Source: Candidatus Kaiserbacteria bacterium
GTDB lineage: Bacteria > Patescibacteriota > Minisyncoccia > Phycocordibacterales > UBA2100
Length of the DNA stretch: 64,000 nt
Assembly: GCA_016214605.1 (NCBI GenBank)
Contig: JACROD010000017.1
Coordinates: forward strand, 1,183-65,182
Reading direction: 5' to 3'
Of the stretch, positions 28,862-35,628 are shown one piece after another. Below the pieces are notes generated by a model. It did not search any database. It was not told the origin of the DNA and saw nothing but the letters and a program-made list of their open reading frames with translations. Within the stretch, counting starts at the first letter, position 1. Every line of letters begins with the position of its first letter. The position numbers and the translations under genes are program-made.

Positions 28862-28867
28862 TGCTTG

Positions 28868-28939
28868 TTGCGGGGGCGGGAATTGCACCCGCGACCTCAA
28901 GGTTATGAGCCTTGCGAGCTACTACTGCTCCACCCCGCG
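28868..28939 (-). tRNA. tRNA-Met (CAT), probable initiator tRNA-fMet
   Basis: CGCGGGGTGGAGCAGTAGTAGCTCGCAAGGCTCATAACCTTGAGGTCGCGGGTGCAATTCCCGCCCCCGCA(A). Cloverleaf with a C1xA72 mismatch typical of bacterial initiator tRNA and anticodon loop CTCATAA. CCA is not encoded. The D-loop lacks the usual GG and the T-loop is TGCAATT. Confidence 0.65.
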
Positions 28940-34268: not shown

Positions 34269-34497
34269 GCTTAGGACATATAAAAAGAGATGGCGATCTC
34301 ACTCAATAGCAACAGTAGAAATATCACCGCTGCATATGCGAGCATGGTCCAAGAAAATGTCAGGATCGTATGCCCGATCGCAAAAATAAGAAAAATGGTC
34401 GCAAGGACCAAAAGTCCGGAATTGATGGTGAGGATCATGGGGACCATTACCCACAGTGTACCAAAAAAGCTGAATATGGTATATTCTTATCTCACAT

Positions 34498-34570
34498 GCC
34501 GGCGTAGCTCAGTGGTAGTAGCATCGCACTCATAAAGCGAAGGTCACAGGTTCGATCCCTGTCGCCGGCA
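34498..34570 (+). tRNA. tRNA-Met (CAT), elongator type, or tRNA-Ile2 if lysidinylated
   Basis: GCCGGCGTAGCTCAGTGGTAGTAGCATCGCACTCATAAAGCGAAGGTCACAGGTTCGATCCCTGTCGCCGGCA. A 7-bp acceptor stem, T-arm GGTTCGATCC and anticodon loop CTCATAA. No CCA. Confidence 0.75.
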
Positions 34571-34657
34571 CTAGCAGTCGCTCGCGGCCAATGGTCGCAC
34601 GAAGGTTCTTGAGGCCCACATAAATGGTTATAGTAATGTACTGTCATGGTATAATTT

Positions 34658-35344
34658 ATGCGCATGACAAAGAAGACCCTCGACCAAGACTTCTTCAAGA
34701 ATTGGGCCCCGACCATGGCCTATGTGCTTGGATTTTTTGCCGCCGACGGCACGATGATCAAAAATAAGCGAGAGGGACATTTCATAGAGTTTCACATTAC
34801 TGATCGTAAGCTACTCTTTGATATACGACGCGCCGTAAGTTCTAATCACAAGATTGCCATACGTGTACGAAATCCAAAATGGAAACTAGGATATCGGTTG
34901 CAGATAGGATCCAAGAGATGGTTTTCCGACCTCCAGAGATTGGGTTTTTCTTCTCGTAAGAGTAATGTAATGCTCTTCCCAAATGTGCCGGATGAATTTC
35001 TCGGTTCGTTTATACGGGGTTATTTTGACGGAGATGGATGCGTATATTTCAAAAATCTGAAGTTTGCCGACCGTAAGAAGGCTCGATGGATATTAATGTC
35101 TGTTTTTACGTCAGGCAGTCGACAATTTCTCATGCAACTTCACACTGCACTGAAAAGACATGGTGTGCAGGGAGGGTCTATTCGAAATAAAAAGAGCGGG
35201 TATGACCTCTCCCTGAGCCACAAAGATAGCCTTGCATTATATCGTCTTATGTATGATACTGTGTCCGATACAAGCATTATGTTGCCCAGGAAATATCGTT
35301 TATTTACTAAGGCGATTAATACATTGTATCCTTTGCGGCCGTAG
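34658..35344 (+). mobile_element. Free-standing LAGLIDADG homing endonuclease (double-motif)
   Basis: 228 aa with two LAGLIDADG motifs (LGFFAADGT and IRGYFDGDGCV). Local GC is lower than in the flanks. The stop codon TAG lies inside the acceptor stem of the downstream tRNA-Asp. Confidence 0.8.
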
Positions 35345-35409
35345 CTCAACTGGTTAGTAGCACCCGCCTGTCACGCGGGAGGTTGCCGGTTCAAGTCCGG
35401 TCGGCCGCG
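35335..35409 (+). tRNA. tRNA-Asp (GTC)
   Basis: GCGGCCGTAGCTCAACTGGTTAGTAGCACCCGCCTGTCACGCGGGAGGTTGCCGGTTCAAGTCCGGTCGGCCGCG. Anticodon loop CTGTCAC, discriminator G. Confidence 0.8.
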
Positions 35410-35414
35410 CATAG

Positions 35415-35446
35415 AAAAAGCCCGCCGTAAAAGGCGGTGCTTTTTC
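35415..35446 (+). terminator. Putative rho-independent terminator after tRNA-Asp
   Basis: aaaaagcccgccgtaaaaggcggtgcttttt. The stem is imperfect. Confidence 0.5.
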
Positions 35447-35628
35447 ATGTGTGTCCGGAGTGACAGCGCCTTCGCACCCGTGACCCCGCAGCGATCCGAG
35501 TCTGGTCATATTCCGTTTGAAGTTCGAAGGTATAAAGGGAATGACTGATAATTTCGTCAAGAAAATATTCAAAAAACAAAGAACGAACACTACGAAGTGT
35601 CCGTTCCAGGTTTTCTTTGGATGAGGTA

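Follow-up and report, generated by a model that had tools for sequence, protein, structure and literature searches.

A free-standing LAGLIDADG endonuclease gene that ends inside tRNA-Asp, and its association with an intron or an altered D-arm in relatives of a Kaiserbacteria genome

Why should the gene for a LAGLIDADG endonuclease lie between two intact tRNA genes, with its stop codon inside one of them? This question is raised by a 64,000-nucleotide stretch of DNA (hereafter the window) from a genome of Candidatus Kaiserbacteria, an ultra-small bacterium of the Candidate Phyla Radiation (CPR, or Patescibacteria), in which an open reading frame (ORF) separates a tRNA-Met(CAT) gene from a tRNA-Asp(GTC) gene. 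The original prediction for this locus described a free-standing homing endonuclease that had invaded a tRNA cluster, or possibly the remnant of a former tRNA intron. Comparison with related loci leads us to consider it probable that the gene encodes a mobile, free-standing homing endonuclease that targets the canonical tRNA-Asp gene, and that carriers of the gene are immune to it through either an intron in tRNA-Asp or a change in the D-arm of this tRNA.

Related loci were gathered by exact-protein look-ups and by a metagenome scan with an alignment of 31 homologs, yielding 78 distinct loci whose proteins are 39-83% identical to that of the window. Wherever enough downstream sequence is available, tRNA-Asp lies 3′ of the ORF, with the single exception of L190, and the first in-frame stop codon falls inside tRNA-Asp in 54 of the 78 loci (69%). 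This stop begins at position 8 of the tRNA, the register seen in the window, in 29 loci, at position 13 in 15, at positions 21-22 in seven, and deeper in three. It lies no more than 25 nt 5′ of tRNA-Asp in another 20 loci, and farther away in the last four, which include two probable pseudogenes. A tRNA-Met(CAT) gene on the same strand occurs no more than 450 nt upstream in 39 of the 68 distinct loci with enough upstream sequence (~57%), and in nine compact loci the ATG follows the 3′ end of tRNA-Met by 0-3 nt. The remaining neighbouring genes vary between loci. The shared unit runs from a short mimic of tRNA-Asp, termed psi, through a -10 box and the ORF to tRNA-Asp, usually with tRNA-Met before it, and forms a compact, probably mobile cassette found widely among CPR bacteria of the Paceibacteria type.

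The gene is not universal at these sites. A sample of gene-less alleles was chosen independently of tRNA sequence, via the release-factor gene that is linked to the carrier locus L005, and comprises seven relatives that share 67-76% release-factor identity with L005. By tblastn, the endonuclease gene is absent from all seven. The presence or absence of the gene is polymorphic, with L099 and L209 through L215 lacking it in the same tRNA neighbourhood; L099 is an empty tRNA-Met/tRNA-Asp site. Gene-less relatives have a leader between tRNA-Asp and a conserved GGTATCT motif, and in L005 the cassette, including psi, takes the place of this leader. From the absence in release-factor-linked relatives, the empty site of L099 and the replaced leader of L005, we conclude that the gene is patchy and non-core and that its insertion point is definable, as the original prediction had hoped of a comparison with loci lacking the insert.

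Some loci within this collection have features of their own. The sequence downstream of the ORF in L190 (4650-4760) resembles the 5′ part of a tRNA; its anticodon loop carries TAC (Val), and its T-arm is disrupted. L192 and L204 have tRNA-Val(TAC) as their upstream tRNA, and the anticodon loop of their tRNA-Asp contains G37. The spacer 3′ of tRNA-Met in L188 (3630-3990), L202 (1760-1950) and L178 (2555-2790) holds repeats of the tRNA-Met 3′ end (...GTTCAAATCCTCCCGTCGACACAAA) after long hairpins, and these look like tandem partial duplications of tRNA-Met. The Paceibacteria loci L209-L215 and L005 share a conserved neighbourhood, extending ~0.2-6 kb around tRNA-Asp, with the order tRNA-Met, tRNA-Met, Na/Ca exchanger, tRNA-Asp, tRNA-Thr(GGT), tRNA-Thr(CGT), release factor 2, ftsE, ftsX and CTP synthase, which offers an anchor for locating empty and occupied sites. 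One to three tandem units form the leader 5′ of tRNA-Asp in L209 (9330-9499), L210 (4110-4283), L211 (4070-4164), L212 (2440-2685), L213 (4105-4262), L215 (4295-4451) and L199 (3900-4070). Each opens with a copy of the 5′ strand of the tRNA acceptor stem together with TA (as in TTGCGGGTGTAAG...CACCCGC TGCATTCGGAAA), forms a 7-bp hairpin that mimics the acceptor stem, and ends ...TTCCTCATTT. Such units are found in gene-less loci and, in L199, between the endonuclease gene and the tRNA; they might be signals for processing, serve as decoys or be scars left by break repair. The empty tRNA-Met/tRNA-Met/tRNA-Asp site of L099 (3033-3140, minus strand) contains a degenerate tRNA-Asp pseudogene in a 108-nt spacer. 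The first 21 nt of this pseudogene equal those of the real gene, and it is altered by a D-loop insertion and by collapse of the anticodon loop, in the two regions where contact by the endonuclease is proposed below. L103 has a partial tRNA-Asp duplicate directly 5′ of tRNA-Asp.

In 14 of the carrier loci, tRNA-Asp is interrupted after CCTGT, between positions 35 and 36, by an insert of 201-262 nt, and ARAGORN misses the tRNA because its gene is split. The insert starts A/CGA...GCAGC, forms a P1 pairing of CUGU with GCAG that places U·G at the splice site, and ends in G, and six of the 14 loci reach the gathering score of the Rfam Intron_gpI model. Joining the exons gives normal tRNA-Asp sequences in these loci. 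None of the 14 introns contains an ORF longer than 47 aa, and in all 14 loci the endonuclease ORF lies upstream of the tRNA-Asp 5′ exon, as it does in the window. Because the intron is downstream of the ORF everywhere, the enzyme is free-standing, and the adjoining gene holds the intron as a separate element that lacks an ORF. L207, the closest relative of the window locus, carries such an intron; the equivalent site in the window (35371-35372, plus strand, between CTGT and CAC at tRNA-Asp positions 35 and 36) is empty. Two of the original suggestions need to be qualified in light of these comparisons. A free-standing gene in a tRNA cluster is indeed present, but it does not represent a single invasion, as the cassette is conserved in 78 distinct loci. 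Likewise, a tRNA-Asp intron exists in L207, but it lacks an ORF, and no locus examined has the endonuclease gene inside a tRNA-Asp intron.

The presence of the intron is tied to the sequence of the D-arm. Among 75 distinct tRNA-Asp alleles that adjoin the endonuclease gene, 14 bear the intron and 61 are intronless. The canonical D-arm (GCTC...[T/C]AGAGC) is present in 13 of the 14 intron-bearing alleles versus nine of the 61 intronless ones (Fisher p 5e-8), leaving 52 of the 61 altered, and the exact 22-nt motif GGT[TC]AGAGC-N6-CTGTCAC is found in 11/14 versus 5/61 (p 3e-7). Intronless carrier alleles use 16 different D-stem 5′ strands, GTGT, GCTT, GATC and GAGG among them, and also show single-base insertions such as GGTTAG[T/C]AGC. 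The flanking tRNA-Met, which provides an internal control, has the canonical D-stem GCTC in 45 of 52 loci. In the release-factor-linked sample, all seven gene-less alleles lack the intron and have a canonical D-stem, the full 22-nt motif is found in six, and both frequencies differ from those of intronless carriers (Fisher p 1e-5 for the D-stem and 3e-5 for the motif); the D-arm of the carrier L005 reads GCTT...AAAGC. Further controls, selected by pattern in an over-general genome scan for tRNA-Asp and derived mostly from Alphaproteobacteria and others with ~12 CPR loci, have canonical spacing in 120 of 120 gene-less loci, versus two of the 13 intronless carriers that fit the same search pattern. 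These data show a three-way association of gene presence, intron and D-arm.

A neighbour-joining tree built from the proteins disperses the intron-bearing loci, which pair as sisters with intronless loci at least eight times. The intron-bearing partner has the canonical D-arm and the other a variant in seven of eight pairs (one-sided sign test p 0.035). The closest pair is formed by L207 and the window, which have the same psi and the same ORF end: L207 has an intron and the D-arm GGTCAG-AGC, and the window is intronless and reads GGTTAGTAGC. Specifically, the D-arm of the window tRNA-Asp contains an extra T (35358, plus strand), giving GGTTAG-T-AGC versus GGTTAGAGC and widening the spacing between D-loop and anticodon loop from 22 to 23 nt. 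Alignments reveal that this T is absent from the intron-carrying L207 and from all gene-less alleles. The variants in the window and in L001 change only the 3′ strand (positions 21-23) and leave positions 10-13 intact. We propose that T35358 is the change that would confer self-immunity on the window locus.

The upstream end of the cassette also resembles tRNA-Asp. Psi (34626-34647, plus strand) is a 22-nt mimic of tRNA-Asp positions 18-38 that reads GGTTAT-AGTAATGTA-CTGTCAT and adjoins the -10 box of the ORF. It combines conserved flanks, similar to the D-loop and the anticodon loop, with an AT-rich centre. About 6 nt beyond it lies a TAnAAT box, at the same place in the alignment of relatives' psi elements as the -10-like box of the window. 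The pattern GGTTAK-N9-CTGTCAY has one match in the window versus none in 100 shuffles, and the same pattern fits tRNA-Asp positions 18-38 in all 120 unrelated loci. At least 31 of 84 loci have a GGTTAG-N9-CTGTCA[CT] element ~10-15 nt ahead of the start codon of the ORF. Psi agrees with canonical tRNA-Asp positions 18-38 at 14-16 of 22 nucleotides with equal 22-nt spacing; it aligns gap-free to the tRNA-Asp of gene-less genomes, and the window's own tRNA-Asp needs a 1-nt gap. The window and L207 have nearly identical psi elements although the synonymous sites of their ORFs are saturated (dS ~1.2). Psi must travel with the cassette, because empty sites lack it and, in L005, it comes in together with the cassette. 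Given the precedent of I-TevI, psi is likely to be an operator and a mimic of the homing site, and as such a pointer to where the enzyme would cut.

Other interpretations of psi were considered and rejected. The putative anticodon-stem pairing is not conserved among copies when these are inspected by eye, which rejects an RNA stem-loop, and psi is therefore treated as a DNA element. A relic left by insertion into the local tRNA-Asp was dismissed on the grounds that psi copies are more alike mutually than to the local tRNA, are absent from empty sites, and in L005 arrive with the cassette. Finally, psi was rejected as a -35/-10 promoter, given that a consensus scan found no full promoter and that psi is too near the TATAAT box, at a distance that varies too much.

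The window protein matches Pfam family PF14528 (LAGLIDADG_3) in two stretches (E 7e-15, 55.5 bits, cut-off 22.5). Motif 1 (GFFAADG, 34730-34750, plus strand) and motif 2 (GYFDGDG, 35018-35038, plus strand) supply the catalytic aspartates D30 and D126, in the numbering of a 228-aa protein, and both residues are invariant across the 31 aligned homologs. Motif 1 retains its aspartate in 83 of 87 loci, and GYFDGDG or a near variant is present in 85 of 87. An AlphaFold model (pLDDT 91.3) has two alpha-beta-beta-alpha-beta-beta-alpha domains, and its best Foldseek match is I-Tsp061I (PDB 2DCH; E 7e-10, TM 0.61-0.67, 18% identity). Next come I-DmoI/E-DreI, then I-AniI, bI3 maturase and the I-OnuI family, and also I-SceI, with a Foldseek probability of 1.0 for I-Tsp061I, E-DreI, I-AniI, I-OnuI and I-SceI. 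Sequence searches of the PDB return only weak matches (E 3e-4 for I-Tsp061I by sequence profile), and the family is remote from solved structures. Between the window protein and that of L207 (83% identity), dN/dS is 0.09, and only two of 78 copies are disrupted, a frameshift in L143 and a nonsense codon in L174, both probable pseudogenes. Thus, the ORF product looks like an active, monomeric double-motif LAGLIDADG homing endonuclease under strong purifying selection. As for a maturase function, which often goes with degenerate catalytic residues, the catalytic residues here are intact and 61 of the 75 distinct alleles have no intron; in intron-bearing genomes the protein may serve as both endonuclease and maturase.

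Homologs in Patescibacteria comprise 2,892 clusters at 90% identity (E<=1e-3) and 113 clusters at 50% identity (E<=1e-30). A sub-clade (L162, 794-1117; L164, L179, L185, L192 and L204) has a ~90-aa N-terminal extension upstream of the LAGLIDADG domain. This extension contains a helix-turn-helix, with a weak match to Pfam HTH_23 and a conserved ...IPRPTITRWFH... segment, and it is probably shared by many of the 305-320-aa representatives of the 50%-identity clusters. In L202 (ORF 1950-2627), an in-frame TGA at ~2020 reads GFFFAD*T in motif 1. Because this codon falls exactly at the expected motif glycine, it suggests that the L202 host reads UGA as Gly (genetic code 25) and that the family reaches lineages of the Gracilibacteria/Absconditabacteria type.

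How is such a gene expressed from within a pair of tRNAs? The upstream flank of the cassette in the window is tRNA-Met(CAT) (34498-34571, plus strand), called by ARAGORN with an Rfam tRNA score of 62.8 bits (gathering score 29). It could be an elongator Met or Ile2 tRNA, initiator features being absent; a second tRNA-Met(CAT) gene lies 5.5 kb upstream on the minus strand (28867-28939). The downstream tRNA-Asp(GTC) (35335-35410, plus strand) is likewise called by ARAGORN (60.6 bits against the same gathering score) and is intact and intronless. Neither gene encodes the 3′ CCA (34571-34574; 35410-35413), which implies RNase Z-type processing and a CCA-adding enzyme. In the ORF list, the reading frame occupies 34658-35344 on the plus strand, stop included, and specifies 228 aa from its first ATG. 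A second ATG at 34664 specifies 226 aa and is the start of the deposited hypothetical protein HZC00_02725, whose 226 aa are 100% identical to the ORF product. We favour this second start because of the deposited protein and the position of an extended -10-like box, TGGTATAAT (34647-34655, plus strand, read from the sequence). This box lies 2-8 nt 5′ of both candidate start codons and therefore implies a leaderless or near-leaderless mRNA. No full -35/-10 promoter emerged from the consensus scan. An intrinsic-terminator-like hairpin with a T run (35422-35445, plus strand) closes the transcription unit directly 3′ of tRNA-Asp.

These data bear out most of what was originally predicted for the window. 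ARAGORN, the ORF list and Pfam agree on a double-motif LAGLIDADG ORF between tRNA-Met(CAT) and tRNA-Asp(GTC), and the ARAGORN calls and Rfam scores agree that both tRNAs are uninterrupted. The stop codon TAG (35342-35344) is indeed U8-A9-G10 of tRNA-Asp, such that the 3′ end of the ORF and the acceptor-stem region of the tRNA overlap by 10 nt (35335-35344, plus strand). The dip in GC content is real and modest (0.42-0.44 within the ORF versus about 0.49-0.55 in the flanks). The ORF is free-standing, being bounded by two intact tRNAs and lacking intein flanks. A group I intron that encloses the ORF and splits a tRNA had been named in advance as the observation that speaks against a free-standing gene. 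Models for group I and group II introns have no match in the whole window at the Rfam gathering score, or in 34300-35600 at E<=10, and the introns of relatives lie downstream of the ORF.

The following mechanism could account for these patterns. The enzyme would recognize canonical tRNA-Asp DNA at about positions 18-38, a segment that spans D-loop (GGTTAGAGC) through anticodon loop (CTGTCAC), and would cut the tRNA-Asp alleles of gene-less genomes. Repair of the break from a donor would then copy the gene, plus the intron when present, in beside the tRNA-Asp of the empty allele, with the conserved tRNA genes or nearby sequence as homology arms. Carriers would protect themselves by the intron in some cases and by D-arm changes in others, such as T35358 in the window. 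Psi would probably be an uncleavable operator through which the enzyme represses its own synthesis, as in I-TevI. RNase P and 3′ processing would free both tRNAs from the transcript and so make the insertion harmless. Moreover, since the stop codon lies inside tRNA-Asp, cleavage by RNase P at 35334/35335 would deprive the mRNA of it and keep enzyme levels low. It is plausible that translation and tRNA-Asp maturation compete for one transcript. At least one CPR locus, L103, encodes a tmRNA.

Several observations weigh against this interpretation. Between five and nine intronless carriers have a canonical D-arm (L138, L159, L182, L186, L202 and short-loop alleles), and one intron-bearing allele, L176, has a variant D-arm. 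The protein tree places related endonucleases beside very different types of tRNA-Asp, which is not predicted by simple co-conversion of the tRNA 5′ half. The tRNA-Met of the window has a D-arm that reads GGTAGTAGCA, with T at position 22 and a C13·U22 mismatch, the same oddity as in tRNA-Asp, and the tRNA-Met of L202 shares this T22. Gene conversion between neighbouring tRNAs or a lineage-wide tRNA feature could explain the shared T22, which weakens the case for the extra T purely as an escape from the endonuclease, and the change may be unspecific. The intron alters only the last 3 bp of the putative site at positions 18-38 and may or may not abolish cleavage. The sample of gene-less alleles is small, with seven unbiased and 12 pattern-selected members, and the target is predicted from comparative patterns alone. 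Lastly, few decayed copies and strong selection fit a useful host protein as well as they fit a homing element.

If so, could the protein be a domesticated, vertically inherited host factor that is no longer a mobile nuclease, serving as a regulator of the tRNA operon through psi or as a maturase for the tRNA-Asp group I intron? The dN/dS of 0.09, the two disrupted copies among 78, the synteny with tRNA-Asp kept over deep divergence, the position of psi as a conserved cis element beside the promoter, and the presence of bI3 maturase and I-AniI among the structural matches are all compatible with this view. We nevertheless consider it unlikely. Nearly all copies retain both catalytic aspartates, in 61 of the 75 distinct alleles there is no intron on which a maturase could act, the absence of the gene from seven of seven release-factor-linked relatives argues against a core function, and the protein tree mixes tRNA-Asp types and intron states.

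It is similarly improbable that the enzyme is a free-standing endonuclease with another target, be it the insertion junction (spacer plus tRNA-Asp 5′ end) or an unrelated site, and that ancestry or tRNA biology accounts for the correlations with D-arm and intron. Homing endonuclease genes usually lie inside the site that they recognize, and this ORF abuts the 5′ end of the tRNA; in addition, D-stem changes also hit positions 10-13, and the correlations are comparative only. However, the sequence 5′ of tRNA-Asp is not conserved between genomes and would be ill suited as a half-site, positions 21-23 but not 10-13 are changed in the variants of the window and L001, intron and variant alternate in seven of eight sister pairs, and psi mimics positions 18-38 rather than the 5′ junction. 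Very little probability remains for a conventional intron-encoded endonuclease, or for an ORF within the degenerate relic of a group I intron that once split a tRNA, even though relatives have a group I intron in tRNA-Asp and LAGLIDADG genes of CPR bacteria are otherwise known from rRNA introns (PMC11270868). The window has uninterrupted tRNAs and, even at E<=10, no match to an intron model, the introns of all 14 relatives are 201-262 nt long with no ORF above 47 aa and lie downstream of the endonuclease ORF, and the L005 cassette replaces a leader, not an intron. A mobile homing endonuclease directed at canonical tRNA-Asp thus remains our favoured interpretation.

An extended version of this interpretation is possible, albeit one toward which we are inclined to be sceptical. 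It would entail a chromosomal arms race across a major bacterial radiation, wherein a nuclease that cuts canonical tRNA-Asp repeatedly drives compensated rewriting of the D-arm (at least 16 D-stem 5′ strands versus one dominant strand in tRNA-Met) or the retention of an intron as armour. The gene would be a tRNA-punctuated, leaderless ORF without a stop codon of its own, throttled by RNase P and by an operator that mimics the target.

If the proposed homing system is real, it would represent natural, large-scale collaborative homing in cellular chromosomes rather than in phages. Gene plus intron, gene plus (inferred) resistant target, and empty site coexist among the ~80 sampled alleles, and a pathway proposed for the formation of mobile introns would become testable by comparison and simple cleavage assays. 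A selfish element would also shape the sequence of an essential tRNA, which could explain the odd D-arms of CPR tRNA-Asp, plus the tRNA-Asp calls that are missed where an intron hides the gene. Parking in a tRNA spacer would offer an alternative to introns and inteins for harmless insertion, in that tRNA processing would excise the gene. The family may furthermore offer new compact meganucleases of ~226 aa with a predictable target of ~22 bp.

Short group I introns are known from other bacterial tRNA genes, namely those for tRNA-Leu(UAA) and tRNA-fMet in cyanobacteria and for tRNA-Ile in Azoarcus (PMC3984707). The intron in relatives of the window locus is of the same short, self-splicing type, located in the anticodon loop with a P1 formed with the 5′ exon (CUGU/GCAG) and a terminal G; it differs in its host, tRNA-Asp(GUC), and in its site between positions 35 and 36, and is absent from the window. 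The literature searched provides no account of a bacterial tRNA-Asp group I intron or of the cassette, which is not proof of novelty.

Collaborative (trans) homing has been described for F-CphI, encoded beside the intron-containing psbA gene of cyanophage S-PM2 (Zeng, Bonocora & Shub, 2009), and for T4 mobE with the nrdB intron (PMC2790892; PMC3984707). As in those systems, the relatives' loci have a free-standing gene beside an intron-bearing gene (PMC3984707; PMC2790892). The intron site is within or near the presumed target, and the intron would therefore protect its carrier and move with the endonuclease gene. Unlike F-CphI and mobE, which are Endo VII-like or HNH enzymes, the window enzyme is a LAGLIDADG protein; its host gene specifies a tRNA on the chromosome of cellular bacteria rather than a phage protein, and most carriers, including the window, are intronless with an altered putative target instead. 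Because its tRNA-Asp has no intron, the window is a member of a family of loci, 14 of which, L207 included, carry the intron, and is not itself an instance of collaborative homing.

A free-standing homing endonuclease gene in a tRNA cluster has a precedent in T4 SegB, a GIY-YIG enzyme that is encoded between tRNA-Arg and tRNA-Ile and targets the tRNA intergenic region (PMC2988022). The target predicted here is likewise in a tRNA region, but SegB belongs to another nuclease family, is phage-borne, and is described without an overlap of ORF and tRNA or an associated intron. I-TevI, in turn, represses its own expression through an operator that lies 5′ of its ORF, matches the homing site at 15 of 20 nt and overlaps the promoter of that ORF, and putative operators are noted for I-TevII as well as I-TevIII (PMC2988022). 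Psi, with 14-16 of 22 identities and a place next to the -10 box, is a comparable homing-site-like element before an ORF. I-TevI is an intron-encoded GIY-YIG enzyme, however, and psi is only a predicted operator.

Within the same phylum and enzyme superfamily, the LAGLIDADG endonucleases of CPR rRNA insertions, such as I-ShaI, are mostly single-domain homodimers encoded within group I introns of 16S and 23S rRNA genes, and the main study of CPR LAGLIDADG enzymes concerns rRNA insertions only and never mentions tRNA (PMC11270868). The window enzyme shares with them the spread by homing into a highly conserved RNA gene, which is presumed in our case, and differs in being a two-motif monomer that is encoded outside introns and linked to tRNA-Asp. 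I-Tsp061I, the closest solved structure, has the same monomeric double LAGLIDADG fold but is only 18% identical, and its gene lies in an archaeal rRNA intron. Three kinds of system, namely free-standing endonucleases, collaborative homing and operators that resemble a homing site, are already known. What is new is their combination at this family of loci: a LAGLIDADG enzyme, an inferred chromosomal tRNA target, an ORF that ends inside a tRNA, and two alternative modes of putative immunity across a large natural population.

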